NCBI RefSeq assembly: GCF_046105845.1
Contig: NZ_CP151004.1
Strand: one strand, 5' to 3'
Source of the DNA: Escherichia coli
GTDB lineage: Bacteria; Pseudomonadota; Gammaproteobacteria; Enterobacterales; Enterobacteriaceae
Length of the DNA: 64,000 nucleotides
Below are positions 2,962 through 54,702 of this stretch, one piece after another (the stretch's first letter is position 1; every line of letters begins with the position of its first letter). Below the pieces are notes generated by a model that had not been told where the DNA came from, did no database searches, and was given only the letters and a program-made list of their open reading frames with translations. A program made the translations under genes and the position numbers.

Positions 2962-2971
2962 GCATCTTTCC

Positions 2972-4750: not shown

Positions 4751-5240
4751 AAAAATATCTGGAAAGTAGATCGCAGAAAATAAAAGAACCTGCTGGTGAG
4801 GCAGGTTCTTTTATTTACTACTTTGATGTTAAGTTACTGATAGTGCAACATGGCATCTCAACGAACGAATTATAACCACCGCTGGACCGTGTTGCAATTA
4901 AGATAATGAGATTTATAATCCTGACTGTTGGGAAGTTGCGCCGGATCGAACCCATTTCAAGTCCTGGCTACCGGACGGGTGGTGCCGCAGGTAGTGCTCT
5001 GATCCGGAGTGCAACATGGCGACTCAACATACGTAAATCAGTATCGACAGGCAGTGTAAGGGTAAGGTGCTGGTGTTGCGCTCCTTAATAAGGAGAGCGG
5101 ATGGACACGCTGACACAAAAGTTAACCGTGCTCATTGCCGTACTGGAGCTATTAGTGGCTCTGTTACGGTTGATTGATTTGTTGAAGTAATGGGCAAATT
5201 GAAACGCAACTAAGGGGGAAAACCGCTTCCCCCTTTAATA
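4751..5240 (+). repeat. Type I toxin-antitoxin repeat unit 2 (zor/orz-like)
   Basis: Tandem copy of unit 1 with scattered substitutions; terminal hairpin overlaps the 3' end of yehK. Confidence 0.7.
5101..5190 (+). CDS. 29-aa hydrophobic type I toxin peptide MDTLTQKLTVLIAVLELLVALLRLIDLLK (ZorO/ZorP-like)
   Basis: Same ribosome-binding site and frame as copy 1; one Q/L difference at residue 4. Confidence 0.6.
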   Translation: MDTLTQKLTVLIAVLELLVALLRLIDLLK

Positions 5241-5563
5241 AAGTAATATTCTATTAGTTGGTTGAATATATTCTGTAGTTTACGATTAAAAATTGCTATT
5301 ACAGTTTCAGGTGATTCACCTCGTAATTTCCGCTCATCAATACACTCATCTCTTATATAAATCAACGCATCATTTATTAGCGGGTCAGCATCTTCTCGAT
5401 CACGTTGATGAAATGTTGGACGTAGCCGGAATCGCTCCAGTCGATAGACAGAACCTGTAAATAATTCAGAGCGTTTATGGATCTCAAGCCTGAAGGAAAA
5501 CGGCTCTTCAGGTACAGGGGCCTCATAATCGTAAATAGTGATCAGCTCTTTTTGCACGATCAT
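5210..5563 (-). CDS. yehK: Small hypothetical protein; last 8 codons lie inside the repeat hairpin
   Basis: ORF 117 aa between yehI and the repeats; position matches K-12 yehK; exact start and C-terminus uncertain. Confidence 0.55.
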   Translation of the reverse strand: MIVQKELITIYDYEAPVPEEPFSFRLEIHKRSELFTGSVYRLERFRLRPTFHQRDREDADPLINDALIYIRDECIDERKLRGESPETVIAIFNRKLQNIFNQLIEYYFIKGGSGFPP

Positions 5564-5623
5564 CGCTTTTCCCGGTGGCAGGTCGTGTTAATAACGAGCA
5601 GTCGCATCACTGCCCGCTGTGTT

Positions 5624-8600: not shown

Positions 8601-9256
8601 TCAAGGTCTACCAACTCATTGGCGATTTCTGGTTTTTCCGGGAGGATCAGCGCAATAAAAGGGCGGCGAACTTTGGTTATTCCTGGCAGTGCGGCAATGA
8701 GTTTGTCGGCGCAACGCTGCCAGCTGCTTTCCTCTGCCAGAGAGAGATGCTTACGCAGTCGGAGATCGAATTCGTTATAGGTTTCTGAGCGATAACCATA
8801 GCCATAATCCTCGTCCTGATACTGCAATGTCACTAGCAGAGGATCACTTTCATAACACCGTGCAATAAACTGGCGTGCAATCACCACCTCAGTCGCATAT
8901 TCCAGTCCCTCTTGTTGGACGATTTCGTCGAGCAACTGTTGGCTATCATTTTGCGCGATACAGGCTAGCGCCGCCATTGTCCGGGCCGGAACTGAGGGTT
9001 TGTGTTCTCCGATCAAGTTGATGGCCTGCGTAATGGCCGACTGCCACTCCAGTGAAAAATTTTCATAACGCCAGACAATGTTTTTTTTCTTCTCAGCTTT
9101 TTGTAGCAATTCATCACCCAGTGTCTGGATGAGGCTTTCAGTGATAACAGGCACTGGTTCGCCCGGCCAACTGCGATGGCTGAGCGGCGTTTTGCCTTTT
9201 TTATATTTCAGTTCCACTTGGGCGTTATCCGCCAGCCACGGTAATTCCTTGTCCAT
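5624..9256 (-). CDS. yehI: 1210-aa uncharacterized protein, paralog of MolR (DUF4132-type C-terminal region)
   Basis: Single long ORF; strong similarity to the adjacent molR reading frame. Confidence 0.85.
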   Translation of the reverse strand: MDKELPWLADNAQVELKYKKGKTPLSHRSWPGEPVPVITESLIQTLGDELLQKAEKKKNIVWRYENFSLEWQSAITQAINLIGEHKPSVPARTMAALACIAQNDSQQLLDEIVQQEGLEYATEVVIARQFIARCYESDPLLVTLQYQDEDYGYGYRSETYNEFDLRLRKHLSLAEESSWQRCADKLIAALPGITKVRRPFIALILPEKPEIANELVDLECPRTHFHSKEWLKVVANDPRAVKKLERYWSQDIFSDREASYMSHENHFGYAACAALLREQGLAAVPRLAMYAHKEDCGSLLVQINHPQVIRTLLLVADKNKPSLQRVAKYSKNFPHATLAALAELLALKEPPARPGYPIIEDKKLPAQQKARDEYWRTLLQTLMASQPQLAAEVMPWLSTQARAVLNSYLSAPPKPVIDGTDNSNLPEILVSPPWRSKKKMTVPRLDLAPFELTPQVYWQPGERERLAATESARYFSTESLAERMEHKSGRVVLQELGFGDDVWLFLNYILPGKLDAARNSLIVQWHYYPGRVEEIMNGWSSPEAQLAEQALRSGHVEVLINIWENDSYSRYRREKSIWNLYLLAQLPREMALTFWLRINEKKHLSAGEDYFLSIFGLDALPGLLLAFSHRPKETFPLILNFGATELALPVARVWRRFAAQRDLARQWILQWPEHTATALIPLVFIKSSDNSEAALFALRLLYEQGHGELLQTVANRWDRADVWPALEKILTQNPLEIYPARMPKAPDFWHPQMWSRPRLITNNQPVTDDALEIIGEMLRFTQGGRFYSGLEQLKTFCQPQTLAAFAWDLFTAWQQAGAPAKDNWAFLALSLFGDESTARDLTTQILAWPQEGKSARAVSGLNILTLMNNDMALMQLHHISQRAKSRPLRDNAAEFLQVVAENRGLSQEELADRLVPTLGLDDPQALSFDFGPRQFTVRFDENLNPVIFDQQNVRQKSVPRLRADDDQLKAPEALARLKGLKKDATQVSKNLLPRLETALRTIRRWSLADFRSLFVNHPFTRLVTQRLIWGVYPANEPRRLLNAFRVAAEGEFCNAQDEPIDLPADALIGIAHPLEMTAEMRSEFAQLFADYEIMPPFRQLSRRTVLLTPDESTSNSLTRWEGKSATVGQLMGMRYKGWESGYEDAFVYGLGEYRLVLKFSSSFNRYNVDSKALMSFRSLCVYRDNKSVTFAELDVFDLSEALSAPDVIFH

Positions 9257-22736: not shown

Positions 22737-23561
22737 TTATCGCATTATGCCCATAAAGCCATGCACACCCATATACACACCAACTAAGCCAATCAACAGA
22801 CTGGAAAAATAGGGGGCGCGTTTAGCGAGAGTGTTAAATCCGCTCCAGCGTTTTGCGACCTGCTGAACGCTGATTGCTGCGCCAACGCCTACGGTGACAA
22901 GCGTTAACGCCAGGCCAATGCTGAAACTGACGACCAGTGTTGCGCCCAGTGTCAGGGCTTTCAACTGAATGCAAATCAACAGCACGGTAATTGCTGCCGG
23001 GCAGGGGATAAGACCACCTGTTAAGCCAAATAGCAAAATTTGCCAGTTGGTGACCTCTCTACCATCAAAGCGTCGTTTAATGTCATTGGCATGGGCTCGT
23101 GCATGGGCATCCTGATACTCGCCATGTTCGTGATGGTGATGATGTCCATGGTCGTGGTGATCTTCGTGATCATGGTGATGATGCTCATGATCATGCCCGT
23201 GCATATTCTCCAGCCAGTTGCGTTCGCCGCGCCAGGTACGCCAGAACATCCAGAACGCGGTGCCAATAATGATCACCGCGGAAATCAACTGGAGCCACGG
23301 TTCCGCCGACTGCGTAGTAAAGCGTTTGCTGATCACCATCCCGCCAAAGGCAATCAACCAGACCACCGCGGTATGCGAAATGGTTGCTGCCAGTCCGAGC
23401 ATCACCGCCTGTTTAATGGTGCCTTTGATGGCGATGATAAACGCCGCCATCATCGTTTTTGAGTGCCCTGGTTCCAGGCCATGAAGCGCACCAAGTAAGA
23501 TGGCGCTGGGGATGAAGAACCAGGCGTTTCCTTGCTGAAGAAGAGTGGTAAATTCGGTCAT
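22737..23561 (-). CDS. rcnA: Nickel/cobalt efflux permease with His-rich loop
   Basis: 274 aa; loop HGHDHEHHHHDHEDHHDHGHHHHHEHGEY. Confidence 0.95.
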   Translation of the reverse strand: MTEFTTLLQQGNAWFFIPSAILLGALHGLEPGHSKTMMAAFIIAIKGTIKQAVMLGLAATISHTAVVWLIAFGGMVISKRFTTQSAEPWLQLISAVIIIGTAFWMFWRTWRGERNWLENMHGHDHEHHHHDHEDHHDHGHHHHHEHGEYQDAHARAHANDIKRRFDGREVTNWQILLFGLTGGLIPCPAAITVLLICIQLKALTLGATLVVSFSIGLALTLVTVGVGAAISVQQVAKRWSGFNTLAKRAPYFSSLLIGLVGVYMGVHGFMGIMR

Positions 23562-23598
23562 GATAATAATTCTTAGTATTAATTCGGCAATCTGATTC

Positions 23599-23633
23599 TA
23601 CTCCCCCCCAGTACCTGATACTACCCCCCAGTA
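23599..23633. promoter_or_regulatory. Two tandem RcnR operator sites (TACT-G/C tract-AGTA)
   Basis: tactcccccccagta at 23599..23613 and tactaccccccagta at 23619..23633 in the rcnA-rcnR divergent intergenic region. Confidence 0.85.
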
Positions 23634-23681
23634 GATTAATAGTGCTATGATTTTTCATGTTCTTGTTAACCAGGTGTTGCC

Positions 23682-23954
23682 ATGTCTCATACAATCCGTG
23701 ATAAACAGAAACTGAAAGCGCGTGCCAGTAAGATTCAGGGCCAGGTCGTGGCGCTCAAGAAAATGCTCGACGAGCCGCACGAATGCGCTGCAGTTTTACA
23801 ACAGATTGCTGCTATCCGTGGCGCGGTAAACGGTCTGATGCGGGAAGTGATTAAAGGTCATCTGACGGAACACATCGTTCACCAGGGGGATGAGCTAAAA
23901 CGTGAAGAAGATCTGGATGTCGTTCTGAAGGTGCTGGATTCATATATCAAATAA
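23682..23954 (+). CDS. rcnR: Ni/Co-responsive transcriptional repressor (CsoR/RcnR family)
   Basis: 90-aa ORF divergent from rcnA. Confidence 0.95.
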
Positions 23955-24039
23955 TTTATTAACGCGATTGTAAAACTGCCGGTTTTCCTCGTTTACAACG
24001 CGTGCGCTGGACATTACCATCCTCCTCTGCGATTTATCA

Positions 24040-24176
24040 TCGCAACCAAACGACTCGGGGTGCCCTTCTGCGTGAAGGCTGAGAAATACCCGTATCACCT
24101 GATCTGGATAATGCCAGCGTAGGGAAGTCACGGACCACCAGGTCATTGCTTCTTCACGTTATGGCAGGAGCAAACT
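24040..24176 (+). ncRNA. TPP (thi-box) riboswitch in the thiM leader
   Basis: Contains ctggggtgcccttctgcgtgaaggctgagaaatacccgtatcacctgatctggataatgccagcgtaggga immediately upstream of thiM. Confidence 0.9.
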
Positions 24177-24965
24177 ATGCAAGTCGACCTGCTGAGTTCC
24201 GCGCAATCTGCGCACGCGTTACACCTTTTTCACCAACATTCCCCTCTTGTGCACTGCATGACCAACGATGTGGTGCAAACCTTTACTGCCAATACCTTGC
24301 TGGCGCTCGGTGCATCGCCAGCGATGGTTATCGAAACCGAAGAGGCCAGTCAGTTTGCGGCTATCGCCAGTGCGTTGCTGATTAACGTTGGCACGCTGAC
24401 GCAGCCACGCGCACAGGCGATGCGTGCCGCCGTTGAACAGGCAAAACGCTCTCAAACACCCTGGACGCTTGATCCAGTAGCGGTGGGTGCACTCGACTAT
24501 CGCCGCCGTTTTTGTCTGGAACTTCTGTCTCATAAGCCAACCGCCATACGTGGTAATGCTTCGGAAATCATGGCATTAGCTGGCATTGCTAATGGCGGAC
24601 GGGGAGTGGATACCACTGACGCCGCAGCTAATGCGATACCCGCTGCACAAACACTGGCACGGGAAACTGGCGCAATCGTCGTGGTCACAGGCGAGGTGGA
24701 TTATGTTACCGATGGTCATTGCACCGTTGGCATTCACGGTGGCGATCCGCTAATGACCAAAGTGGTAGGAACTGGCTGTGCATTATCGGCGGTTGTCGCT
24801 GCCTGTTGTGCGTTACCAGGCGATACGCTGGAAAATATCGCATCTGCCTGTCACTGGATGAAACAAGCCGGAGAACGCGCAGTCGCCAGAAGCGAGGGGC
24901 CAGGCAGTTTTGTTCCACATTTCCTTGATGCGCTCTGGCAATTGACGCAGGAGGTGCAGGCGTGA
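24177..24965 (+). CDS. thiM: Hydroxyethylthiazole kinase
   Basis: 262 aa; follows the thi-box. Confidence 0.95.
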
Positions 24966-25762
24966 AACGAATTAACGCTCTGACGATTGCTGGTACTGAT
25001 CCGAGTGGTGGTGCGGGGATTCAGGCCGATCTTAAAACCTTCTCGGCACTTGGCGCTTATGGTTGCTCAGTGATTACTGCACTGGTGGCGCAAAATACCC
25101 GTGGCGTACAGTCGGTGTATCGCATTGAGCCTGATTTTGTCGCCGCCCAGCTCGATTCGGTGTTCAGCGATGTGCGAATCGATACCACTAAAATCGGTAT
25201 GTTGGCGGAAACCGATATTGTTGAAGCGGTGGCAGAACGGTTGCAACGTTATCAGATCCAAAACGTGGTACTCGACACCGTTATGCTGGCAAAAAGCGGC
25301 GACCCGCTGCTTTCACCTTCGGCGGTTGCTACGCTGCGCAGTCGATTATTGCCACAGGTTTCATTAATAACGCCAAACTTGCCCGAAGCTGCCGCCTTGC
25401 TCGACGCGCCACACGCGCGCACCGAACAGGAAATGCTGGAACAAGGGCGATCGCTGTTGGCGATGGGCTGTGGCGCAGTGCTAATGAAAGGTGGTCATCT
25501 GGATGATGAGCAAAGCCCGGACTGGCTGTTTACTCGTGAGGGGGAACAACGATTTACTGCACCGCGCATTATGACCAAAAACACCCACGGCACTGGTTGT
25601 ACGCTCTCTGCGGCGTTGGCTGCACTACGCCCGCGCCATACAAACTGGGCTGACACCGTACAGGAGGCAAAAAGCTGGCTTTCATCGGCGTTAGCCCAGG
25701 CCGACACGCTGGAAGTTGGTCACGGTATTGGTCCGGTTCACCACTTCCACGCCTGGTGGTGA
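24962..25762 (+). CDS. thiD: Hydroxymethylpyrimidine/phosphomethylpyrimidine kinase
   Basis: 266 aa; 4-bp overlap with thiM. Confidence 0.95.
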
Positions 25763-25817
25763 GCACCGTACTATAGCTGCTTTGGTTATTGTCAGCCTTT
25801 GGCGCTGACATTCAGGG

Positions 25818-26645
25818 ATGAAACCAATGCAACTGAGAATCACCAGTCGAAAAAAATTCACCGCTTTATTATGCGCTCTTGGGCTAATTTCCATCGTTGC
25901 AATTTATCCGCGTCAGACGGTGAATTTTTTCTACTCGACAGCAATTCAGATTAAAGACTACATCCACTTCTACGGTTATCGTCCGGTCAAATCTTTTGCT
26001 ATTCGCATTCCTGCCAGTTACACCATTCATGGTATTGATGTTTCACGCTGGCAGGAGCGAATCGACTGGCAGCGGGTGGCAAAAATGCGCGATAACGGTA
26101 TTCGCTTGCAGTTTGCCTTTATCAAGGCGACGGAAGGCGAAAAGCTGGTGGACCCCTATTTTTCGCGTAACTGGCAACTAAGCCGCGAAAATGGCCTGCT
26201 GCGCGGGGCGTATCATTATTTCTCCCCGTCAGTATCCGCTTCAGTTCAGGCGCGATTATTTCTGCAAACGGTGGATTTCTCACAAGACGATTTCCCTGCG
26301 GTACTGGACGTAGAAGAGCGAGGAAAATTATCGGCAAAAGAATTACGTAAGCGGGTAAGTCAGTGGCTAAAAATGGTCGAAAAAAGTACGGGAAAAAAGC
26401 CGATTATTTACTCAGGAGCCGTTTTTTATCACACCAATCTGGCGGGCTATTTCAATGAATATCCGTGGTGGGTGGCTCACTATTATCAACGTCGTCCGGA
26501 CAATGACGGCATGGCCTGGCGCTTCTGGCAGCATTCCGACCGTGGACAGGTAGATGGCATTAATGGTCCGGTGGATTTTAATGTGTTTAATGGCACGGTG
26601 GAGGAGTTGCAGGCATTCGTTGATGGGATGAAAGAAACGCCTTAA
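25818..26645 (+). CDS. yegX: GH25-family lysozyme-like muramidase with N-terminal membrane anchor
   Basis: 275-aa ORF (alternative start 25827); GH25-like IDVSRWQERIDWQRV. Confidence 0.8.
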   Translation: MKPMQLRITSRKKFTALLCALGLISIVAIYPRQTVNFFYSTAIQIKDYIHFYGYRPVKSFAIRIPASYTIHGIDVSRWQERIDWQRVAKMRDNGIRLQFAFIKATEGEKLVDPYFSRNWQLSRENGLLRGAYHYFSPSVSASVQARLFLQTVDFSQDDFPAVLDVEERGKLSAKELRKRVSQWLKMVEKSTGKKPIIYSGAVFYHTNLAGYFNEYPWWVAHYYQRRPDNDGMAWRFWQHSDRGQVDGINGPVDFNVFNGTVEELQAFVDGMKETP

Positions 26646-26696
26646 ATAAGAAGCAGTGATATACTCCCACCAGACTCCCTGGCAGGAAAAAGACAA

Positions 26697-27443
26697 ATGG
26701 AACAAGCGCATACCCAGCTGATTGCCCAACTGAACGAACGTATTTTAGCGGCGGATAACACGCCGCTTTATATTAAGTTTGCCGAAACGGTAAAAAATGC
26801 CGTGCGCAGCGGGGTGCTGGAGCATGGCAATATTTTGCCCGGTGAGCGTGATTTAAGTCAGTTAACCGGCGTTTCGCGCATTACGGTGCGCAAGGCGATG
26901 CAGGCGCTGGAAGAAGAGGGCGTGGTGACGCGTTCGCGTGGTTACGGCACGCAGATCAACAACATCTTCGAATACTCGTTGAAAGAAGCGCGAGGTTTTT
27001 CTCAGCAGGTGGTATTGCGCGGGAAAAAGCCCGATACGCTATGGGTTAACAAGCGTGTCGTGAAATGTCCCGAAGAAGTCGCGCAGCAGCTAGCGGTCGA
27101 AGCAGGAAGTAATGTCTTTTTGCTTAAGCGTATTCGCTATGTCGATGAAGAAGCGGTATCAATTGAGGAATCGTGGGTTCCTGCGCATTTAATTCATGAT
27201 GTTGATGCCATCGGAATTTCTCTTTATGACTACTTCCGCAGCCAGCACATTTACCCACAACGTACGCGTTCCCGCGTTAGCGCCCGGATGCCGGATGCCG
27301 AGTTTCAGTCACATATTCAGTTAGATAGCAAAATACCGGTGCTGGTGATCAAGCAAGTGGCGCTTGACCAACAGCAACGGCCTATTGAGTACAGCATTAG
27401 CCACTGTCGCAGCGATCTATACGTTTTTGTGTGCGAGGAGTAG
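26697..27443 (+). CDS. yegW: GntR/HutC-family transcriptional regulator
   Basis: 248 aa; N-terminal winged-helix region, C-terminal UTRA-like region. Confidence 0.85.
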   Translation: MEQAHTQLIAQLNERILAADNTPLYIKFAETVKNAVRSGVLEHGNILPGERDLSQLTGVSRITVRKAMQALEEEGVVTRSRGYGTQINNIFEYSLKEARGFSQQVVLRGKKPDTLWVNKRVVKCPEEVAQQLAVEAGSNVFLLKRIRYVDEEAVSIEESWVPAHLIHDVDAIGISLYDYFRSQHIYPQRTRSRVSARMPDAEFQSHIQLDSKIPVLVIKQVALDQQQRPIEYSISHCRSDLYVFVCEE

Positions 27444-28382
27444 TTCCTCGCGCGTTGGCGCACAATCACCGCCCCGATGCCCGACAACCCACGACGCCAC
27501 TGCATTGCCCAGTAATACAGCATCCGCCAGTGGCAGACCAGAGGCCAGCCCGGCAAGTACGCCACCTGCATGACTGTCGCCCGCCCCAATGGTGTCGACA
27601 ACTTGCGTTGGAAATGCCGGAATGCAGCCAGAAGCATCGTTGCTGAAATACCATGCACCCTCTTTATCGAGACGAACGATCAACGGCGCGGCAAATTTCT
27701 CCTGCCATTGCTTGCCAAGTGTTGTTATCTCTGCGGATAAAGCAAAACGTTCGGCGGCAATCTCAGCCTCTTGACGATTGAGTGATACTAAAGGTCGACA
27801 GGCCATGATCCGCGCCAGTAATGCGTCCGGGATATCGCCGATACGTGGGCCAAAATCGATAAACGGCGTCACGTCTTGCAGCTCTTCCAGCCATTCCACT
27901 AACAATTCGCCGCAGAGCGAGGCCAGTTGATAACCGGAAAAATAGAGCAGGCTGCCAGGCGCAACGGTTAATCGTGCCAACCATTGGCGATTCCATTGAT
28001 TTTCCACGCCGCTGAATGACATAAAAGTGCGTTCGCCATCCGGCTCAACCAGCGCCAGACACCAGCCGTTATCACCTTCGGCGTTATCGATCAGGCTGAT
28101 TAAGCCCTCTTTTGCCATCCGGTTGCGAATAATCTCCGCCCAAACCCCCTGACCGAGCGGCAAGGCATTACCCGCTTCGATGCCGAGGCGCTTTAACGCC
28201 ACGGCAATATTCAGTGCGCAGCCGCCAACGTTAACGCTCTGCTGTTTCAGTTCGATATCGCACCCACGCCAGGGGAGGGCATAAGCGTCGGCGATCACAT
28301 CAATGACCGCCGCGCCAATCACCATAACTGGCTGACGCGTGGTTAATTCAGGCAGCAGCGTGTGTAATCGAGCGCCGCTCAT
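27417..28382 (-). CDS. yegV: PfkB-family sugar/nucleoside kinase
   Basis: 321 aa; ribokinase-like motifs GAGD and DTIGAGD. Confidence 0.85.
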   Translation of the reverse strand: MSGARLHTLLPELTTRQPVMVIGAAVIDVIADAYALPWRGCDIELKQQSVNVGGCALNIAVALKRLGIEAGNALPLGQGVWAEIIRNRMAKEGLISLIDNAEGDNGWCLALVEPDGERTFMSFSGVENQWNRQWLARLTVAPGSLLYFSGYQLASLCGELLVEWLEELQDVTPFIDFGPRIGDIPDALLARIMACRPLVSLNRQEAEIAAERFALSAEITTLGKQWQEKFAAPLIVRLDKEGAWYFSNDASGCIPAFPTQVVDTIGAGDSHAGGVLAGLASGLPLADAVLLGNAVASWVVGHRGGDCAPTREELLLAHKNV

Positions 28383-29383
28383 ACCGCCTCCCGTTGTTGA
28401 CGATATTTCGCCAGCGCTGTGGCATAGCGGTTGAAATCAAGCTGATTTACCGCATCCAGCTCCGCCTTTAACGCAGGATCGATAGCGTTAATGCCATGCA
28501 ACGCGCCGCAGATTGCCGTCGCCATAGCACCGATGGTGTCTGTATCGCCGCCAAGGTTAGCGCACAGGACGGCGCAACGGTTCGGGTCGGTTTGTGCCAG
28601 TTCAACCAGCGCAATGGCGCACGGAACGGACTCAATAGTGCTGGTACCTGCGCCAACGACCTGGTAAAGCTGTTCGCTGGCGGATTCAGTGCCGTCGGCA
28701 TTGCGCACAATTTTCAGCGCAATCTCCAGCCGCGCCGCCAATGAGGCGCTGAACGTGGTCGTGCGTTTTTGCTGTGCATGTTGCGCAATTGAAGGCAGTG
28801 AATCAACAATCGCTGACCAGCTTTCTCCGTCAATGGCACGAGAAATCGCCCATGCGATGACTACCGCACCTGCAACTGCCAGATCGGATTTATGGGTCGG
28901 GCTCGACGCCAGCGCCACATCATCAATAAAGGAATCAACATCACGCGCCGGAAGCAAACAACCTAATGGCGAGACGCGCATCGCTGCGCCGTTGGTCACG
29001 CCGTTGTTTTCCAGTTCAGCAACGGGTTTACCGTCGCGAATGGCGTTGAGAGCAATCTTCGAGGTCGGACCTAGTACGTTTTTGTTAAAGGCATCGAAAC
29101 GCAGCGCCCAGTCGAGAATATTACGCCCAATCAGATCCGGATCGATCTTGCCTTCACGTTCCAGTAACGCATCCGCCAGACACAGCGCCATCGAGGTATC
29201 GTCGGTGAATTCGGCGCGGTTAAAATAACAGGCTGCGTTATTCTCCTTTGGTCCAGGCAGAAAACGATCAATCCAGCCAAAGTGTGCTTTAACGCGGCTG
29301 CGTGGCCAAAGCTCGGAGGGCATCCCCATCGCATCCCCTAACGCCTGCCCATAAAGAGCACCGAGAATACGTTCTGTTTTCAT
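28379..29383 (-). CDS. yegU: ADP-ribosylglycohydrolase-family protein
   Basis: 334 aa; 4-bp overlap with yegV. Confidence 0.85.
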   Translation of the reverse strand: MKTERILGALYGQALGDAMGMPSELWPRSRVKAHFGWIDRFLPGPKENNAACYFNRAEFTDDTSMALCLADALLEREGKIDPDLIGRNILDWALRFDAFNKNVLGPTSKIALNAIRDGKPVAELENNGVTNGAAMRVSPLGCLLPARDVDSFIDDVALASSPTHKSDLAVAGAVVIAWAISRAIDGESWSAIVDSLPSIAQHAQQKRTTTFSASLAARLEIALKIVRNADGTESASEQLYQVVGAGTSTIESVPCAIALVELAQTDPNRCAVLCANLGGDTDTIGAMATAICGALHGINAIDPALKAELDAVNQLDFNRYATALAKYRQQREAV

Positions 29384-30657
29384 TTAACTTCCCCTTGTGT
29401 CAACGCAATATCGCGATCATCGACCTTGATAGCCGTAATTTCGTTGTCGGATTCGCGGAAAAAAATCATGAACAGCACGGCGATAATGGCAATCATCACC
29501 GCGCCAAAAGTCCACATCCCGGACCAGTTGAAAGTCAGTCCGTTTACCGGTTCCTGATAAGCGAACATCTTTTCCATCATCACACCGCCAAGACGATAGC
29601 CGAGCAAACTGCCGAAGCCCTGGCAGCAGAGCGTGATCAGCCCCTGCGCAGCGGTACGCATATGCACGGGGGCTTTTTTATCGACATAGATGTAAGCGGT
29701 AACGTAGTAAAAATCGTAACTTACTCCATGCAGCAAAATGCCGAGGAACAGTAACGCGTAGGTGAAATATTCATCCGCACTACCGTAAATAAAGAAGCCA
29801 TAGCGGATCGCAGCGGTGACCAGACCAAGCAACAATACCTTTTTGATACCAAAGCGTTTAGTGAAAAACGGCAATGCCAGCATAAAGAAGATTTCAGAGA
29901 ACTGGCCGAGCGTCATCCAGCCGGTGGCGTTTTTCATGCCGACTTCTGTCAGATAACCGTTGGCAAAGATGTAATAGAACGCCAGTGGCATCGCAAACAG
30001 GAATGAACAGAAGAAAAAGACGAGGAAGTTTTTATCGCGCAGCAGGATCAGCGCATCCAGGCCGAGCATGACTTTAATGTCCATTTTGCCGGTGCTTTTT
30101 GGCGGCGTGTCGGGCAGGAAAAACGCAAACACACCGAGCAGAGCAGAACTTCCGGCGGTAATCAGCAGCGGGATGTTAGTCGGAGAGATATCGGCATAAC
30201 CCAGCATTTGCGGCAAAAATCCACATGCCAGACCGGAGGCAATCCAGCCGATAGTGCCCATCACACGAATGCGTGGGAAATCACGCTCCACATCCGGCAC
30301 GTTGGCAAAAGCGATACTGTTAGTCAGCGCAATGGTCGGCATATAGGTTAGCGAGTAGGCCAGCAGTAACGGGAAGAACCCGGCAAAAGTGGTCTGTTGC
30401 GCAGCGAAATACATCAGCGCCGCACCAGCGAACATCAATACCGCCAGCACTTTCTGCGCCGAGAAAAAGCGGTCAGTGATGGAGCCAACCAGAATTGGCG
30501 ACAGGATCGCCGCAATGGCGGTACAGGCATACGACCAGCCAATTTCTCCGGCACTAAAACCGCTTTTACTTAACCACAACCACAATGGCACAAACCACGC
30601 GCCCCAGATAAACCATTCAACAAACATCATGAACGACAGCTTTGCTGTTGTTTTCAT
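29380..30657 (-). CDS. yegT: Nucleoside:H+ symporter-family transporter (NupG/XapB-like MFS)
   Basis: 425 aa, multi-pass membrane protein; first gene of yegTUV. Confidence 0.85.
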   Translation of the reverse strand: MKTTAKLSFMMFVEWFIWGAWFVPLWLWLSKSGFSAGEIGWSYACTAIAAILSPILVGSITDRFFSAQKVLAVLMFAGAALMYFAAQQTTFAGFFPLLLAYSLTYMPTIALTNSIAFANVPDVERDFPRIRVMGTIGWIASGLACGFLPQMLGYADISPTNIPLLITAGSSALLGVFAFFLPDTPPKSTGKMDIKVMLGLDALILLRDKNFLVFFFCSFLFAMPLAFYYIFANGYLTEVGMKNATGWMTLGQFSEIFFMLALPFFTKRFGIKKVLLLGLVTAAIRYGFFIYGSADEYFTYALLFLGILLHGVSYDFYYVTAYIYVDKKAPVHMRTAAQGLITLCCQGFGSLLGYRLGGVMMEKMFAYQEPVNGLTFNWSGMWTFGAVMIAIIAVLFMIFFRESDNEITAIKVDDRDIALTQGEVK

Positions 30658-30913
30658 CTTTTAATTCCTTCATGACAGGTAATGTAAGGTACGCGATGAC
30701 AATACCATTTAATAATACCTTTTAAATACCTTTGCGGTGAAAACTTGACCGCGGTAACATTTTTTCTGATGAATCGAGCCAACAGAAAACGCTGATAAAA
30801 CATCCAAAAGATGGAAAAACTCGCCTGTAACGACCAGGATTATGATTGCCCGCAAAAGGCGGGCCAGGACAATCCATAGCCGATATCCAATCGGAATTTA
30901 CGGGAGCATAGTA

Positions 30914-31966
30914 ATGACAGATATTGCGCAGTTGCTTGGCAAAGACGCCGACAACCTTTTACAGCACCGTTGTATGACTATTCCTTCTGACCAGCTTTAT
31001 CTCCCCGGACATGACTACGTAGACCGCGTGATGATTGACAATAATCGCCCGCCAGCGGTGTTACGTAATATGCAGACGTTGTACAACACCGGGCGTCTGG
31101 CTGGCACAGGATATCTTTCTATTCTGCCGGTTGACCAGGGCGTTGAGCACTCTGCCGGAGCTTCATTTGCCGCTAACCCGCTCTACTTTGACCCGAAAAA
31201 CATTGTTGAACTGGCGATCGAAGCGGGCTGTAACTGTGTGGCGTCAACTTACGGCGTGCTGGCATCGGTATCGCGGCGTTACGCGCATCGCATTCCATTC
31301 CTCGTCAAACTTAATCACAACGAGACGCTAAGTTACCCGAATACCTACGATCAAACGCTGTATGCCAGCGTGGAGCAGGCCTTCAACATGGGCGCGGTGG
31401 CGGTTGGGGCGACTATCTATTTTGGCTCGGAAGAGTCACGTCGCCAGATTGAAGAAATTTCTGCGGCCTTTGAACGCGCGCATGAGCTGGGCATGGTGAC
31501 CGTGCTGTGGGCCTATTTGCGTAACTCCGCCTTTAAGAAAGATGGCGTTGATTACCATGTTTCCGCCGACCTGACAGGTCAGGCGAATCATCTGGCGGCA
31601 ACCATAGGTGCAGATATCGTTAAACAAAAAATGGCGGAAAATAACGGCGGCTATAAAGCGATTAATTACGGTTATACCGACGATCGCGTGTACAGCAAGT
31701 TGACCAGCGAAAACCCGATTGATCTGGTGCGTTATCAGTTAGCTAACTGCTATATGGGCCGCGCAGGGTTGATAAACTCCGGCGGTGCTGCAGGCGGTGA
31801 AACTGACCTCAGCGATGCAGTGCGTACTGCGGTTATCAACAAACGCGCTGGCGGAATGGGGCTGATTCTTGGACGTAAGGCGTTCAAGAAATCGATGGCT
31901 GACGGCGTGAAACTGATTAACGCCGTGCAGGACGTTTATCTCGATAGCAAAATTACTATCGCCTGA
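30914..31966 (+). CDS. fbaB: Class I fructose-bisphosphate aldolase
   Basis: 350 aa from [19 protein letters not shown]; ORF track adds a 24-codon N-terminal extension. Confidence 0.9.
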
Positions 31967-31995
31967 TACGCCTCATACGAACAGCACTACCACGT

Positions 31996-32029
31996 ATGCC
32001 GGAAAAGGCGTTTACGTTGCATCCGGCAT
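31996..32029. repeat. REP-like palindromic unit
   Basis: atgccggaaaaggcgtttacgttgcatccggcat. Confidence 0.6.
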
Positions 32030-32139
32030 AAAAACACGCGCACTTCGTTACGGCTTCCCCCAGGAGGCCGTTTTTTTTTGCCTGTCATTCTGATTAATTT
32101 TCATATTGTCGTTTTTGTGATCATTATCTCGACATTTAA

Positions 32140-33075
<936 letters not shown>

Positions 33076-33076
33076 T

Positions 33077-34339
<1,263 letters not shown>

Positions 34340-34348
34340 GGACGGTAT

Positions 34349-34801
34349 ATGACTAACCTGTTTGTTCGTAGCGGAATTTCTTTTGTCGATCGTAGCGAAG
34401 TTTTAACCCATATCGGTAATGAGATGCTCGCGAAAGGTGTGGTTCATGATACCTGGCCACAGGCATTAATTGCCAGAGAAGCAGAATTCCCTACCGGGAT
34501 AATGCTTGAGCAGCACGCCATTGCAATACCGCATTGTGAGGCGATTCATGCTAAGTCGTCAGCCATTTATCTGTTAAGGCCTACAAATAAAGTTCATTTT
34601 CAGCAAGCGGATGATGATAACGACGTGGCGGTATCGTTGGTTATTGCGTTAATTGTGGAAAATCCGCAGCAGCAATTGAAACTTTTACGCTGTTTATTTG
34701 GCAAGTTACAACAGCCCGATATCGTCGAGACACTAATCACTCTTCCTGAAACCCAGTTAAAGGAATACTTCACAAAGTATGTTTTAGATTCAGACGAATA
34801 A
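34349..34801 (+). CDS. gatA: Galactitol PTS EIIA
   Basis: 150 aa. Confidence 0.95.
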   Translation: MTNLFVRSGISFVDRSEVLTHIGNEMLAKGVVHDTWPQALIAREAEFPTGIMLEQHAIAIPHCEAIHAKSSAIYLLRPTNKVHFQQADDDNDVAVSLVIALIVENPQQQLKLLRCLFGKLQQPDIVETLITLPETQLKEYFTKYVLDSDE

Positions 34802-34831
34802 ATCCCTCTGTAACAATAAAAAGGACTATTT

Positions 34832-35116
34832 ATGAAACGCAAGATTATTGTCGCTTGCGGAGGCGCGGTTGCGACCTCCACGATGGCGGCGGAAGAAATT
34901 AAAGAGTTGTGTCAGAGTCATAATATTCCTGTTGAATTAATCCAGTGTCGGGTTAATGAAATAGAGACCTATATGGATGGCGTGCATTTGATATGTACTA
35001 CCGCCAAAGTTGACCGTAGTTTTGGCGATATTCCGTTAGTTCACGGCATGCCTTTTGTTTCTGGTGTCGGTATCGAAGCATTACAAAATAAAATTCTGAC
35101 TATCTTACAGGGGTGA
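34832..35116 (+). CDS. gatB: Galactitol PTS EIIB
   Basis: 94 aa. Confidence 0.95.
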
Positions 35117-35119
35117 CCT

Positions 35120-36475
35120 ATGTTTTCAGAAGTCATGCGTTATATTCTCGACCTCGGCCCTACGGTGATGCTGCCGATTGTCATCATTATTTTTTCTAAA
35201 ATATTAGGCATGAAGGCAGGCGATTGCTTTAAAGCGGGTCTGCATATCGGGATTGGCTTTGTTGGCATTGGCCTTGTGATTGGCTTAATGCTGGATTCCA
35301 TTGGTCCGGCGGCGAAAGCGATGGCGGAAAATTTCGACCTGAAACTGCATGTGGTCGATGTCGGTTGGCCGGGCTCTTCACCAATGACCTGGGCGTCGCA
35401 AATTGCGCTGGTGGCGATTCCGATTGCGATTCTGGTTAACGTGGCGATGCTACTGACCCGTATGACGCGGGTGGTAAATGTTGATATCTGGAATATCTGG
35501 CATATGACCTTCACCGGCGCATTGCTGCATCTGGCAACCGGTTCATGGATGTTAGGGATGGCGGGTGTGGTAATTCACGCGGCGTTTGTTTATAAGCTCG
35601 GCGACTGGTTTGCCCGCGATACCCGAAATTTCTTTGAGCTGGAAGGCATTGCTATTCCGCACGGTACGTCGGCGTATCTGGGGCCAATTGCGGTGCTGGT
35701 GGATGCTATCATCGAGAAAATCCCAGGCGTTAACCGTATTAAATTTAGCGCCGACGATATTCAGCGCAAATTTGGCCCATTTGGCGAACCTGTCACCGTG
35801 GGCTTTGTGATGGGGCTGATTATCGGCATCCTCGCGGGTTACGATGTCAAAGGTGTATTGCAGCTGGCGGTAAAAACGGCGGCAGTTATGCTGCTGATGC
35901 CACGGGTGATTAAACCCATCATGGATGGTTTAACGCCTATCGCTAAGCAGGCCCGTAGTCGTTTACAGGCGAAGTTCGGCGGTCAGGAGTTCCTGATTGG
36001 CCTTGATCCGGCGTTGCTGCTGGGGCATACGGCGGTGGTATCGGCAAGCCTGATTTTTATCCCGCTCACCATTTTAATTGCTGTTTGTGTGCCGGGTAAT
36101 CAGGTGCTGCCGTTTGGCGATCTTGCAACTATCGGCTTCTTTGTGGCGATGGCAGTTGCCGTGCATCGTGGAAATCTGTTCCGCACCTTAATCTCGGGTG
36201 TCATCATTATGAGCATCACCCTGTGGATCGCGACGCAAACTATTGGTTTGCACACCCAACTGGCGGCTAATGCTGGGGCGTTAAAAGCCGGAGGTATGGT
36301 GGCTTCAATGGATCAGGGCGGTTCTCCCATTACCTGGTTACTGATTCAGCTTTTCTCCCCGCAAAATATTCCCGGTTTCATTATTATCGGCGCAATTTAT
36401 CTTACCGGTATTTTCATGACCTGGCGTAGAGCGCGTGGTTTTATTAAACAAGAGAAAGCCGTTCTCGCAGAATAA
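35120..36475 (+). CDS. gatC: Galactitol PTS EIIC permease
   Basis: 451 aa, polytopic membrane protein. Confidence 0.95.
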   Translation: MFSEVMRYILDLGPTVMLPIVIIIFSKILGMKAGDCFKAGLHIGIGFVGIGLVIGLMLDSIGPAAKAMAENFDLKLHVVDVGWPGSSPMTWASQIALVAIPIAILVNVAMLLTRMTRVVNVDIWNIWHMTFTGALLHLATGSWMLGMAGVVIHAAFVYKLGDWFARDTRNFFELEGIAIPHGTSAYLGPIAVLVDAIIEKIPGVNRIKFSADDIQRKFGPFGEPVTVGFVMGLIIGILAGYDVKGVLQLAVKTAAVMLLMPRVIKPIMDGLTPIAKQARSRLQAKFGGQEFLIGLDPALLLGHTAVVSASLIFIPLTILIAVCVPGNQVLPFGDLATIGFFVAMAVAVHRGNLFRTLISGVIIMSITLWIATQTIGLHTQLAANAGALKAGGMVASMDQGGSPITWLLIQLFSPQNIPGFIIIGAIYLTGIFMTWRRARGFIKQEKAVLAE

Positions 36476-36522
36476 TTTTTACCTGAGGGGGAGTTTATCC
36501 CCCTTAATAATCAGGAGTTTTT

Positions 36523-37563
36523 ATGAAATCAGTGGTGAATGATACTGATGGTATCGTACGCGTTGCCCAACGAGTCATTCCTGAAATTAAACATCAGGAT
36601 GAGGTGCGGGTAAAAATTGCCAGCTCGGGATTATGTGGTTCCGATTTACCCAGAATTTTTAAAAATGGTGCACATTATTATCCAATAACGTTAGGCCATG
36701 AATTTAGCGGCTATATTGATGCTGTGGGATCCGGTGTTGATGATTTACATCCTGGCGATGCGGTTGCCTGTGTGCCGTTATTACCCTGTTTTACTTGTCC
36801 AGAGTGTCTGAAAGGGTTTTATTCCCAGTGCGCAAAATATGATTTTATTGGTTCACGGCGTGATGGTGGGTTTGCCGAATATATTGTCGTTAACCGAAAA
36901 AATGTCTTTGCTCTACCTGCGGATATGCCTATTGAGGATGGGGCTTTTATTGAACCGATTACCGTTGGCCTGCATGCTTTTCATTTAGCGCAAGGTTGTG
37001 AGAATAAAAACGTTATTATTATTGGTGCCGGAACCATTGGCCTGCTGGCTATTCAGTGCGCTGTCGCGCTGGGAGCAAAGAGTGTGACGGCGATCGACAT
37101 TAGCTCAGAAAAACTGGCACTGGCAAAATCTTTCGGTGCGATGCAAACATTTAACAGCCTTGAAATGAGCGCGCCGCAAATGCAGGGCGTTTTACGCGAG
37201 CTGCGCTTTAATCAGCTTATCCTCGAGACGGCTGGCGTCCCGCAAACCGTCGAACTGGCGGTAGAGATTGCCGGGCCTCATGCCCAGCTGGCGCTGGTGG
37301 GCACGTTGCATCAGGATCTGCATTTAACATCGGCAACGTTTGGCAAAATATTACGTAAAGAGCTGACGGTTATCGGCAGCTGGATGAACTACTCCAGCCC
37401 TTGGCCGGGGCAGGAGTGGGAAACGGCGAGCCGGTTGCTGACAGAACGTAAGTTAAGCCTGGAGCCATTAATCGCTCACCGTGGAAGCTTTGAAAGCTTC
37501 GCCCAGGCGGTGCGTGACATCGCTCGTAATGCTATGCCGGGCAAAGTATTGCTCATTCCCTGA
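36523..37563 (+). CDS. gatD: Galactitol-1-phosphate 5-dehydrogenase (Zn-dependent)
   Basis: 346 aa. Confidence 0.95.
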   Translation: MKSVVNDTDGIVRVAQRVIPEIKHQDEVRVKIASSGLCGSDLPRIFKNGAHYYPITLGHEFSGYIDAVGSGVDDLHPGDAVACVPLLPCFTCPECLKGFYSQCAKYDFIGSRRDGGFAEYIVVNRKNVFALPADMPIEDGAFIEPITVGLHAFHLAQGCENKNVIIIGAGTIGLLAIQCAVALGAKSVTAIDISSEKLALAKSFGAMQTFNSLEMSAPQMQGVLRELRFNQLILETAGVPQTVELAVEIAGPHAQLALVGTLHQDLHLTSATFGKILRKELTVIGSWMNYSSPWPGQEWETASRLLTERKLSLEPLIAHRGSFESFAQAVRDIARNAMPGKVLLIP

Positions 37564-37662
37564 AACCGCGGGCCAGCGTGATGCTGGCCCGGTATTGTGC
37601 AAAACAGATCATTCACCAATGGTCCCCCTTCGTTTACACTAGCCACAATTGAATATGGGTAA

Positions 37663-38442
37663 ATGACGATGAATTCATTCGAGCGAAGGAATAAGATCAT
37701 CCAATTAGTGAATGAACAGGGAACCGTGCTTGTTCAGGATCTGGCGGGAGTATTTGCTGCCTCGGAAGCGACAATCCGTGCCGATTTGCGCTTTCTTGAA
37801 CAAAAAGGCGTGGTTACGCGCTTTCATGGCGGTGCGGCGAAAATAATGTCCGGTAATAGTGAAACCGAGACCCAGGAAGTCGGGTTTAAAGAGCGATTTC
37901 AGCTCGCCAGTGCGCCAAAAAACAGAATAGCGCAGGCGGCAGTCAAAATGATCCACGAAGGGATGACCGTTATTCTCGACAGCGGAAGTACGACAATGCT
38001 TATCGCCGAAGGTTTAATGACCGCCAAAAATATCACGGTGATTACCAACAGTCTCCCGGCGGCGTTTGCCCTTTCCGAAAATAAAGACATTACTCTGGTC
38101 GTCTGTGGTGGGACCGTCCGCCATAAAACACGCTCGATGCATGGTTCCATTGCCGAGCGTTCATTGCAGGATATTAATGCCGATTTAATGTTTGTGGGTG
38201 CTGATGGTATTGATGCGGTTAATGGTATTACGACCTTTAATGAAGGCTATTCGATTAGCGGGGCGATGGTCACAGCCGCAAATAAAGTGATTGCCGTTCT
38301 CGATTCATCGAAATTTAATCGTCGCGGTTTTAATCAGGTACTGCCAATCGAAAAAATCGACATTATTATTACCGACGATGCTGTGTCAGAGGTGGATAAA
38401 CTGGCATTGCAGAAGACACGGGTGAAATTAATTACGGTGTAG
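37663..38442 (+). CDS. gatR: DeoR-family repressor of the gat operon, uninterrupted
   Basis: 259-aa continuous ORF; no insertion sequence. Confidence 0.9.
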   Translation: MTMNSFERRNKIIQLVNEQGTVLVQDLAGVFAASEATIRADLRFLEQKGVVTRFHGGAAKIMSGNSETETQEVGFKERFQLASAPKNRIAQAAVKMIHEGMTVILDSGSTTMLIAEGLMTAKNITVITNSLPAAFALSENKDITLVVCGGTVRHKTRSMHGSIAERSLQDINADLMFVGADGIDAVNGITTFNEGYSISGAMVTAANKVIAVLDSSKFNRRGFNQVLPIEKIDIIITDDAVSEVDKLALQKTRVKLITV

Positions 38443-38452
38443 TATTGCTCTG

Positions 38453-38486
38453 TATGCCGGATAAAGTTTTTACACCGCATCCGGCA
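38453..38486. repeat. REP palindromic unit between convergent gatR and yegS
   Basis: atgccggataaagtttttacaccgcatccggcat. Confidence 0.6.
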
Positions 38487-38523
38487 TTACGGATTCTCCC
38501 TGGTTCAAGAGAGAATAGTGTGA

Positions 38524-39423
38524 TTAACGCAACAATGGGCAATCTGGTGGTAATCGACAACGCAACGCCGCCGGAAGTATTTCAATATGAAAGTTTTGTC
38601 CGCTCAACGGTTCGCCATCAAGATTAAAAGTGATTTCGTGTGGGGCTTGTATATCAAACCACGACGAAGCGCCTTCGATAATATTCGGGTTATCTTCGTC
38701 AGATTTTAATGTTGATACGAGAGCCGGAAGAATTTCATCGCCGGTAAAAATGCGCAGTTGCAGCAAGCCATCGTTAATTAACGCGTTCGGGCACAATTGC
38801 TGACCGCCACCGGCCTGACGCCCGTTACCAATACCAATGACCAGGGCGTCACCTTGCCAGTGAAAGTTTTCACCGCGGATCTCACAACGGTCCGGTTGCA
38901 GAGTATCCATGCGCATTAAGCCATGAATGATGTAAGAGACGCCACCCAGCGCGGCTTTTAATTTTTCCGGCGTTTCTGTGGTAATACGCGTCCCAAATCC
39001 GCCTGTCGCCATATTAATAAAACAGGTTTGTTTGTTGACCTGCGCCATATCTATCGCAATGGCGTCACCGGCAATTGCCAGTTTCAGCGCCTTATCCAGT
39101 GCCTCAGGAATCCCTACACTGGTGGCAAAATCATTGGCGGTTCCTAATGGTAAAATTCCCAGCGCGGGTATGTCATCCCCCTCACACTGAATCAACGCCG
39201 TAGAAACTTCATTAATGGTGCCATCGCCACCACCGGCAATCACCGTTGCGACGCCCAACTTCCGGGCCTCCTCTACATATCGTGCGGCATCGCCTTTCTC
39301 CCAGGTGACCCGCACATGGATCGTCATTCCTTCCTCACGCAACAGCATAATTGCTTCGCGCAAGGGTAGATTGTCAGTACTTTTGCCATTAAGAATCAGT
39401 AAGCTGGCGGGAAAATCTGCCAT
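38524..39423 (-). CDS. yegS: Lipid kinase (DAG-kinase-like fold)
   Basis: 299 aa; GGDGT motif. Confidence 0.9.
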
Positions 39424-39836
39424 GATCGTATGTGCCTTTATGATTGGTCTGTAGATAGTGTAGAGCAGAAAAGAAAAGGTGGAGTCAGAACAGGATGAAA
39501 GTCTGAGGATAAAAAGTCAGTTCAAGTATGGGGGATTCAGTGGTTACCACCAGGAGCTTGCAATGGGAACCGCGAATATTAACGGTAGCCACCGATAAAT
39601 TTCAAAAAAGAGCATATGCCTAATATTCAACCAAACAGTGGCATCTTAAATATACTATTCCAAATATATTAAAGCCCCATGGAGTTACTTGGAAAGGGCC
39701 TTCATGTCTGTAATTCCTACTTATGTAGGAAATGTTGTACAGAACATTTATTATAATCCTATTCAAATATAATAATCAGCCATTATTATATTTAAACACT
39801 AGAGAGTGTCGTTGGTATTTAATGGGGGAAGGTGAG

Positions 39837-40154
39837 ATGAAAAAGATAGCTGCTATATCATTAATTAGTATTTTTATTATGTCTGGTTGTGCTGTGCATA
39901 ATGATGAGACAAGTATCGGTAAATTTGGTCTTGCATATAAAAGTAATATTCAGCGTAAACTCGATAACCAATACTACACCGAAGCCGAAGCTTCTTTAGC
40001 CAGGGGCAGAATATCTGGTGCAGAAAATATAGTAAAAAATGATGCAGCCCATTTCTGTGTTACTCAGGGCAAAAAAATGCAGATAGTTGACCTGAAGACA
40101 GAAGGTGCAGGATTACATGGCGTCGCTCGTCTGACATTCAAATGTGGAGAGTGA
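39837..40154 (+). CDS. yegR: Small lipoprotein
   Basis: 105 aa from MKKIAAISLISIFIMSGC (lipobox). Confidence 0.7.
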   Translation: MKKIAAISLISIFIMSGCAVHNDETSIGKFGLAYKSNIQRKLDNQYYTEAEASLARGRISGAENIVKNDAAHFCVTQGKKMQIVDLKTEGAGLHGVARLTFKCGE

Positions 40155-40312
40155 GAATATTTTTTGGTAAGCGTCAAACATGCGCGTTCTGGTTGTGCTT
40201 AGCCGGAACCAGTGCGAGCACGATGCCGTTACGTGAAAGGCATCGTGCTATGAAGGGAGATTCTATCGATGTGGTCAATGGAAGACGGTGACCAGGGATA
40301 GGGCTTATGCAT

Positions 40313-40339
40313 AAAAAATAAGCCCGTGTAAGGGAGATT
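40313..40339. other. Bacteriophage P2 attachment core sequence (unoccupied att site)
   Basis: Exact match to the 27-nt core aaaaaataagcccgtgtaagggagatt as recalled; no flanking prophage genes. Confidence 0.6.
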
Positions 40340-40483
40340 ACACAGGCTAAGGAGGTGGTTCCTGGTACAGCTAGCATTTTATGGGTTATGTTTTTCAGCG
40401 AAACGGATGATAACCTTAATAAATGCAGCTGTATGTGATCGGTTTCTAAGAATTTTCCATCCGGGAAAAATAATCGAAATTAA

Positions 40484-53689: not shown

Positions 53690-53850
53690 TAAGCCGATGA
53701 TTTCAGCGGGACGCTGAAACGGGAAAGCCCCTCCCGAGGAAGGGGCCATAAATAAGGAAAGGGTCATGATGAAGCTACTCATCATCGTGGTGCTCTTAGT
53801 CATTAGCTGGCCAGCTTACTAAGACTACCAGGGCGGGGGAAACCCCGCTC
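53690..53850 (-). ncRNA. Sib-type antisense sRNA antitoxin, copy 1 (approximate ends)
   Basis: Inferred from known ibs/sib architecture; hairpins flank the ibs ORF. Confidence 0.45.
53766..53822 (+). CDS. Ibs-family toxin peptide MMKLLIIVVLLVISWPAY
   Basis: 18-aa hydrophobic ORF with AGGAAAGGG ribosome-binding site; not in ORF track. Confidence 0.75.
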   Translation: MMKLLIIVVLLVISWPAY

Positions 53851-54019
53851 TACCCTCACTCCTGAAAGTATGCCTTCACGATAAGATTGTCAATCTGCAG
53901 GCTTTGCAGTCTGCGATCCTGCCAGCAAATATTCTTTGCGAGACGTTACGCAATAATCACACTGGAAACTATTTTATCCGCAAGTCAGCGATAGACTGCA
54001 TTCAGGGCGAAAGGAGGTA

Positions 54020-54180
54020 AGCCGACGATTTCAGCGGGACGCTGAAACGGGAAAGCCCCTCCCGAGGAAGGGGCCTTAAATAAGGAAAGGGTCATGATGA
54101 AGATACTCATCATCGTGGTGCTCTTAGTGATTAGCTACCCAGCATACTAAGACTACCAGGGCGGGGGAAACCCCGCTCTA
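54020..54180 (-). ncRNA. Sib-type antisense sRNA antitoxin, copy 2 (approximate ends)
   Basis: Inferred from repeat architecture. Confidence 0.45.
54094..54150 (+). CDS. Ibs-family toxin peptide MMKILIIVVLLVISYPAY
   Basis: Second repeat unit, same architecture. Confidence 0.75.
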   Translation: MMKILIIVVLLVISYPAY

Positions 54181-54349
54181 CCCTCACTCCTGAAATTATG
54201 CCTTCACGATAAGATTGTCAATCCGCAGGCTTTGCAGTCTGCGATCCTGCCAGCAAATATTCTTTGCGAGTCGTTACGCAATAATCACAGAGGAAACTAT
54301 TTTATTCACGCGTTAGCGATAGACTGCATTCAGGGCGAAAGGAGGTAAG

Positions 54350-54510
54350 CCGACGATTTCAGCGGGACGCTGAAACGGGAAACCCTCTCCCGGAGAAGAG
54401 GGCTTTTAATAAGGAAAGGGTTATGATGAAGCACGTCATCATACTGGTGATACTCTTAGTGATTAGCTTCCAGGCTTACTAAGAACACCAGGGGGAGGGG
54501 GAAACCTCTC
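54350..54510 (-). ncRNA. Sib-type antisense sRNA antitoxin, copy 3 (approximate ends)
   Basis: Inferred from repeat architecture. Confidence 0.45.
54423..54482 (+). CDS. ibsA: Ibs-family toxin peptide MMKHVIILVILLVISFQAY
   Basis: Third repeat unit; peptide matches recalled K-12 IbsA. Confidence 0.75.
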   Translation: MMKHVIILVILLVISFQAY

Positions 54511-54702
54511 CCTAACCCTCACTCCTGAAATTATGTCACTCCGCCCTTAGTGTCAATCGACGGCTCTCCGTTCTTGCGAGGCGAATAGCAAAATTTTCTG
54601 CGCCGCCGGGCCTAATTCTGAAAGTTTCTTCGTTTGCTCTTATTTCATTATTGCAATCGGTATGATACCGGACCTCGATAATTCTCTAAGAAAGGATTTC
54701 TT

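Follow-up and report, generated by a model that had tools for sequence, protein, structure and literature searches.

The window, that is, the whole analysed stretch of 64,000 nucleotides from Escherichia coli (assembly GCF_046105845.1, contig NZ_CP151004.1), carries the galactitol genes gatYZABCD followed by the regulatory gene gatR (Table 1). At positions 37663..38442 of the plus strand both the listing of open reading frames (ORFs) and the reading of the raw sequence give one ATG-started frame of 259 codons plus stop, without an internal stop, and across this interval no competing ORF longer than 83 amino acids was found in any frame. The gene stands right after gatD on the same strand and is followed by the convergent yegS; other E. 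coli records are annotated with this arrangement, and the order gatYZABCD-gatR recurs in four other genera. Compared gene by gene with K-12, the gatYZABCD genes are equal in length, 96.1–99.1% identical in nucleotide sequence, and differ by 0–6 amino acids.

Table 1. Features of the galactitol locus (positions within the 64,000-nucleotide window).
Feature	Position	Strand	Basis or remark
gatY regulatory region	32096..32193	+	holds CRP-like, promoter-like and candidate operator elements
CRP-like site TGTGA-N6-TCTCG	32116-32131	+	abuts the promoter-like pair
Promoter-like site TCGACA / CATTAT	32129-32134 / 32153-32158	+	consensus scan
Candidate operator block GAAAACAAACGACAG	32170-32184	+	core AAA-AAACGA-AG invariant across five genera
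gatYZABCD, presumed GatR target operon	32194..37563	+	ORFs full length, no internal stops
gatY	32194-33048	+	ORF
gatZ	33077-34339	+	ORF
gatA	34349-34801	+	ORF
gatB	34832-35116	+	ORF
gatC	35120-36475	+	ORF
gatD	36523-37563	+	ORF
G+C-rich stem-loop after gatD, CGGGCCAGC-GTGAT-GCTGGCCCG	37569..37591	+	sequence reading and alignment
Putative gatR promoter TTCACC, 17-nt spacer, TACACT	37612..37640	+	inferred from cross-genus conservation
gatR CDS from the conserved start	37669..38442	+	257 aa plus stop; annotation and cross-genus alignment
HTH_DeoR, DNA-binding helix-turn-helix	37684..37842	+	PF08220, aa 8-60 of the 259-aa frame
DeoRC sensor and oligomerisation domain	37915..38376	+	PF00455, aa 85-238 of the 259-aa frame
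IS3 target GAC	37965-37967	+	single and uninterrupted here; Met101/Thr102 codons of the 259-aa frame; alignment to K-12 pieces

The frame opens with ATG-ACG-ATG, and a start at 37663 adds two extra codons, Met-Thr. The second ATG (37669) is the PGAP start for identical genes, and in the alignment of gatD-gatR intergenic regions it is the sole one kept in Enterobacter, Kosakonia, Phytobacter, and Superficieibacter, where the first ATG is replaced by ATC or ATT; in the same alignment a conserved AGG/GGG precedes the second ATG by 9–10 nt. Since, in addition, all gatR orthologues compared are 257 amino acids long, translation likely begins at 37669 and yields a protein of 257 rather than 259 residues. 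This is a minor correction to the sequence-only reading, in which a continuous 259-codon ORF was described: the frame is indeed uninterrupted, while its probable length is 257 codons.

The frame encodes a DeoR-type helix-turn-helix at the N-terminus, detected by the Pfam model PF08220 (E=1.3e-16; score 60.5 bits, cut-off 21), and a C-terminal DeoRC domain, detected by PF00455 (E=2.5e-51; score 174 bits, cut-off 31.8), and these matches show it to be a genuine gene rather than an ORF arising by chance. In the recognition helix, the residues S-E-x-T-I-R-x-D-L do not vary among gatR orthologues, with which the frame is colinear from end to end over their 257 residues and shows no frameshift. The sole solved relative found by sequence is PDB 7l6l, the C-terminal domain of DeoR, the deoxyribose operon repressor (E=1.9e-11).

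The GatR proteins of Enterobacter, Kosakonia, Phytobacter, and Superficieibacter are 72–74% identical to that of the window and are encoded in the same gatYZABCD-gatR order, and the window protein keeps every residue that is invariant among the orthologues. These four genera share with E. coli the start codon, the hexamer pattern of the gatR promoter, and the stem-loop after gatD, but they differ in genomic position, as their gat clusters adjoin rsmI/lpoA whereas the E. coli cluster lies between fbaB and yegS. The garD gene is found upstream of gat in three of the four, while Superficieibacter has other genes there. A Citrobacter orthologue with an 86% identical protein was also found, for which the contig look-up returned none. 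According to its published description, the GatR of Salmonella Typhimurium is likewise a DeoR-family repressor that ends the gat cluster, but the cluster is larger and occupies another chromosomal location. This Salmonella repressor is reportedly autoregulated, and the gat promoters there are said to be CRP-dependent (Nolle et al. 2017, J Bacteriol 199:e00595-16).

Both hexamers of the putative gatR promoter are kept in position across the five genera, with a score of 8/12, and the consensus promoter/terminator scan listed no promoter for gatR, this site being under its threshold. Upstream of it, the stem of the post-gatD stem-loop is kept in all five genera (around 8895-8925 in the other-genus stretches) with one paired, compensatory-looking change, GAGCCAGC/GCTGGCTC versus GGGCCAGC/GCTGGCCC; no clear T-run follows the stem-loop in the window. 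Around the gatY -10 element a repeat search found TTTCA/TGAAA words, which together with the block at 32170-32184, the one short stretch kept there across the five genera, are candidate elements of a GatR operator. A word shared by the regions upstream of gatY and of gatR was also sought, and the matches were weak and A-rich only, such as AAAACAAATAAT / AAAACAGATCAT, which are unconvincing alone.

The gatY and gatR promoters of the four other genera are rich in AgaR-like CTTTCR repeats, and E. coli promoters are without them: the gatY promoter of the window has none, versus two to five in the other genera, and the CTTTCGAAA and CTTTCAC elements of the gatR promoters of those genera are absent from the region upstream of gatR in the window. 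In both promoter regions K-12 and strain Z1323HEC0462 agree with the window in these features, so that the lack of CTTTCR, CTTTCGAAA, and CTTTCAC is a trait of E. coli and not of this strain, and, with no CTTTCR repeat in the window, the operator model of the other genera is not transferable to it. Despite the fact that these repeats are missing from E. coli gat promoters, the recognition helix of GatR is conserved. It is conceivable, if rather unlikely, that E. coli GatR acts through reduced or diverged operators, with about one conserved block just past the -10 element, and that gatR may not be autoregulated. If this were true, the switch would be leakier or differently tuned than in the other genera, as a property of the species.

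The annotation of K-12 MG1655 (NZ_CP169634.1) splits gatR into two pseudogene pieces with an IS3 transposase between them. The element (IS3E) is 1258 bp long and flanked on either side by a 3-bp GAC target duplication: in the alignment the left gatR piece ends with GGGATGAC and passes into the IS3 end TGATCCTACCC, and the right piece takes up again as GACCGTTATT following GGGTAAGATCA. The point of insertion falls within EGMTVILDSGSTT, a motif kept across genera that lies where the sensor domain starts. In the window the same gene occupies the same place after gatD, but the K-12-type null allele, i.e. the 1258-bp IS3 at the GAC of codons 101-102, is absent, and blastn with the K-12 IS3 copy as query found no IS3 homology in the whole 64 kb. 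When the IS3 and one GAC were removed from K-12 gatR in silico, a frame of 780 nt was restored, the product of which is 100% identical to that of the window. The two frames differ by 20 nucleotides, and all 20 differences are synonymous, which indicates purifying selection on GatR. From 37549 to 37796, a stretch that takes in the region upstream of gatR and 134 nt at the beginning of the ORF, the window is identical to K-12. The K-12 product would comprise 102 GatR residues and 10 IS-encoded ones, with the helix-turn-helix kept and the sensor and oligomerisation domain gone.

Thus the statement of the sequence-only reading that K-12 MG1655 carries an IS3 in gatR is borne out by the two pseudogene pieces, the 1258-bp element, and its GAC duplication, and the alignment with MG1655 gatR proposed as a check gave an uninterrupted GAC in the window and an identical protein once the K-12 IS3 is removed. 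Re-inspection for an IS element or frameshift revealed neither, as the sequence is continuous through 37965-37967 and the frame colinear with the orthologues. The further remark that the strain is not MG1655-like at this locus also holds, since the window is without the IS3, without the 78-bp intergenic insert of K-12, and without the P2 remnant of K-12.

The overall DNA identity to K-12 at the gat locus is about 96–97.5%. In the fbaB-gatY intergenic region (32000-32040) the extra 78-bp REP-like insert of K-12 is missing from both the window and Z1323HEC0462. The segment 37300-38000, which runs from the last part of gatD through the intergenic region and takes in the 5' third of gatR, diverges from K-12 by about 1% (8 differences per 700 bp), versus 3–4.5% in the flanks on either side; this gives a weak hint of a recombination patch, with a Fisher p of about 0.03 between the two parts of gatR.

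In the most probable scheme, GatR would be produced from its own weak promoter downstream of gatD, would oligomerise via the DeoRC domain, and would bind A/T-rich operator repeats overlapping the -10 element and the early transcribed region of the CRP-dependent gatY promoter. Bound GatR would keep gatYZABCD off until an inducer meets the sensor domain, upon which the repressor would be released. The inducer may be galactitol or, more probably, galactitol-1-phosphate, the product of the phosphotransferase system (PTS), an effector suggested by the habit of the DeoR family, whose repressors usually leave the DNA upon binding a phosphorylated sugar. Repression, the identity of the inducer, and the positions of the operators are thus inferred for this strain. 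With gatR, its promoter region, and the target operon all intact, there are good grounds to expect galactitol-inducible gat expression in this strain, unlike MG1655, where the IS3 would cut the protein after residue 102 with the loss of the sensor domain.

Several published studies bear on this expectation. For MG1655 and further K-12 derivatives, constitutive or raised gat expression has been attributed to the insertion in gatR (PMC3045373, PMC4072538, PMC5094792), and a preprint makes the same attribution (bioRxiv 10.64898/2026.01.05.697630), so that the claim that IS3 makes gat constitutive in K-12 agrees with all four sources in the form "constitutive or elevated". In the same preprint CRISPRi silencing of the intact gatR of strains LF82 and CFT073 had a strong effect on fitness in the mouse gut, while in MG1655 no gatR signal was obtained because the gene is broken there (bioRxiv 10.64898/2026.01.05.697630); the effect in LF82 and CFT073 indicates that in wild strains the unbroken gene encodes a repressor that is at work. 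In Salmonella a GatR lacking the helix-turn-helix no longer represses the gat promoters (PMC7972205).

To estimate how common the intact gene is, complete E. coli genomes were searched with a 1180-bp query centred on gatR, a match in one piece being defined by coverage of at least 80%. Such a match was found in 4756 of 5426 genomes, which is an upper bound for intact frames because coverage alone does not prove an open frame; K-12 records split at position 503 of the query. The K-12 gatR/IS3 junction, searched with a 120-bp junction query, was covered in 344 genomes, and the junction carriers sampled were all laboratory strains (ER1709, RP437, TG1). These counts establish the intact gatR as the norm of the species and K-12 as the exception. 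In NZ_AP027978.1, one of the few genomes where the match is only residual, the place of gat between yegU/yegT and yegS is taken by arabinitol genes: in the stretch 1000-7000 of this record the gat cluster, fbaB, and part of yegT are replaced by an IS1 and the arabinitol genes dalD, a frameshifted xylB, and a RbtT/DalT-type transporter gene. This arrangement matches what is known in E. coli, where ribitol/arabitol and galactitol loci exclude each other.

The NCBIfam collection has no GatR-specific model, and the best matches of the protein there, AgaR (232.9 bits; cut-off 260) and SrlR (226.3 bits; cut-off 350), are both below their cut-offs; it is accordingly synteny and the K-12 comparison that support the name gatR. 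The lead of these two models could suggest a paralogous, AgaR-like or SrlR-like regulator of the DeoR family instead of a galactitol repressor, and AgaR, the N-acetylgalactosamine repressor and the nearest curated model, does share the two-domain DeoR architecture, aligns over the full length, and likewise regulates a PTS pathway of the tagatose-bisphosphate type. However, its genomic context differs, and besides the missed curated cut-offs the gene of the window follows gatD within the gat cluster, encodes exactly the product of the restored K-12 frame, and has a sequence which several sources label 'DeoR family galactitol utilization operon repressor'. The exact protein, in its 259-aa and 257-aa forms, occurs on at least 1000 public contigs. 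WP_001295426.1, the annotated product in strain Z1323HEC0462, has the same amino-acid sequence throughout; in that strain this wild-type gatR lies in the same gatYZABCD-gatR-yegS context and differs from the window over 1180 bp (99.4% identity) by synonymous or flanking changes only, none of apparent functional effect. From the GatR of Nissle 1917 the window protein is separated by one conservative difference, I196V. An identity as AgaR or SrlR is effectively refuted by cut-offs, synteny, and K-12 identity, and a paralogue can hardly be credited. According to sequence comparison the gene of the window is, with high confidence, an intact wild-type gatR predicted to encode the DeoR/GlpR-family repressor that controls the operon for galactitol uptake by the PTS and for galactitol catabolism. 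The gene was reportedly first described in the isolate EC3132 by Nobelmann and Lengeler in 1996 (J Bacteriol 178:6790; cited in PMC4072538), to whose paper the K-12 lesion is also attributed.

Granted an intact gatR, two doubts concern its meaning. One is that the intact gene may be a distinctive marker of an unusual strain, for which speaks that the whole window has no match of 99% or more among the 5426 complete E. coli genomes; yet the gatR region is unbroken in most of these genomes, the K-12 junction is confined to 344, with laboratory strains only among those sampled, and the protein is the commonest allele, so that this interpretation is very improbable. The noteworthiness of intactness implied in the sequence-only reading consequently falls away, 4756 of 5426 genomes against 344 K-12 junctions making it the majority state of the species: intactness says only that the strain is not a K-12 derivative with this lesion, and the intact gatR is already-known biology with nothing surprising in it. 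The other doubt is that the ORF is intact while the repressor or its circuit does not work here, through a weak promoter or a degraded operator, which would leave gat constitutive or uninducible. An intact ORF is compatible with a silent regulatory defect elsewhere, and the lack of CTTTCR repeats in the gatY promoter, the lack of CTTTCGAAA and CTTTCAC upstream of gatR, and the low-scoring gatR promoter missed by the scan could be read in this way. Against it, these promoter features are common to K-12 and other E. coli, with nothing specific to the strain; GatR repression is active in strains with a near-identical GatR and the same type of locus; the wholly synonymous differences from K-12 argue for selection on the protein; and all orthologue-invariant residues are kept. 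A non-working circuit is therefore improbable, and an intact gatR with normal control of gat is the preferred interpretation.

The value of the observation lies in annotation, as the galactitol genes of this genome should be normally regulated, and traits specific to K-12, such as constitutive gat expression and sensitivity to D-arabitol, are not to be expected, nor is the strong selection for gat loss seen in MG1655 colonising the mouse gut. MG1655 is an atypical reference at gatR.

Beyond this locus, window pieces of 20–24 kb show unbroken synteny and found no match of 99% or more among the 5426 complete RefSeq E. coli genomes, the best values being 97.4%, 98.2%, and 98.0%, so the strain seems to belong to a lineage without a close complete genome in the collection searched. 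The missing match at 99% raised the idea of a Shigella, which is unlikely in view of the unbroken synteny over 20–24 kb and the absence of IS3, the one insertion sequence looked for. Over positions 23077-44339 the window agrees at 100% with a contig of SRA run SRR28309099, and over 23077-40339 with the NCBI draft GCA_044249515.1. The CyaR small RNA lies at 40316-40401 on the minus strand, and a single copy of the P2-type attachment core AAAAAATAAGCCCGTGTA is present where cyaR ends at its 3' side (40305-40401), which indicates that the P2 attachment site is unoccupied in this strain; in K-12 the site holds a P2 remnant (ogrK/D'), and Z1323HEC0462 and GCA_044249515.1 carry a full P2-like prophage. 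A TPP riboswitch at 24046-24142 upstream of thiM is the same as in K-12 and ordinary. Towards the end of the window where mdtA lies (53751-54556, minus strand) three tandem Sib antitoxin RNAs (RF00113) were detected, which implies three copies of the ibs/sib type I toxin-antitoxin system. Two OrzO-P antitoxin RNA matches (RF02083) at 4172-4247 and 4782-4855 suggest a duplicated type I toxin-antitoxin locus of the zorO/orzO type.
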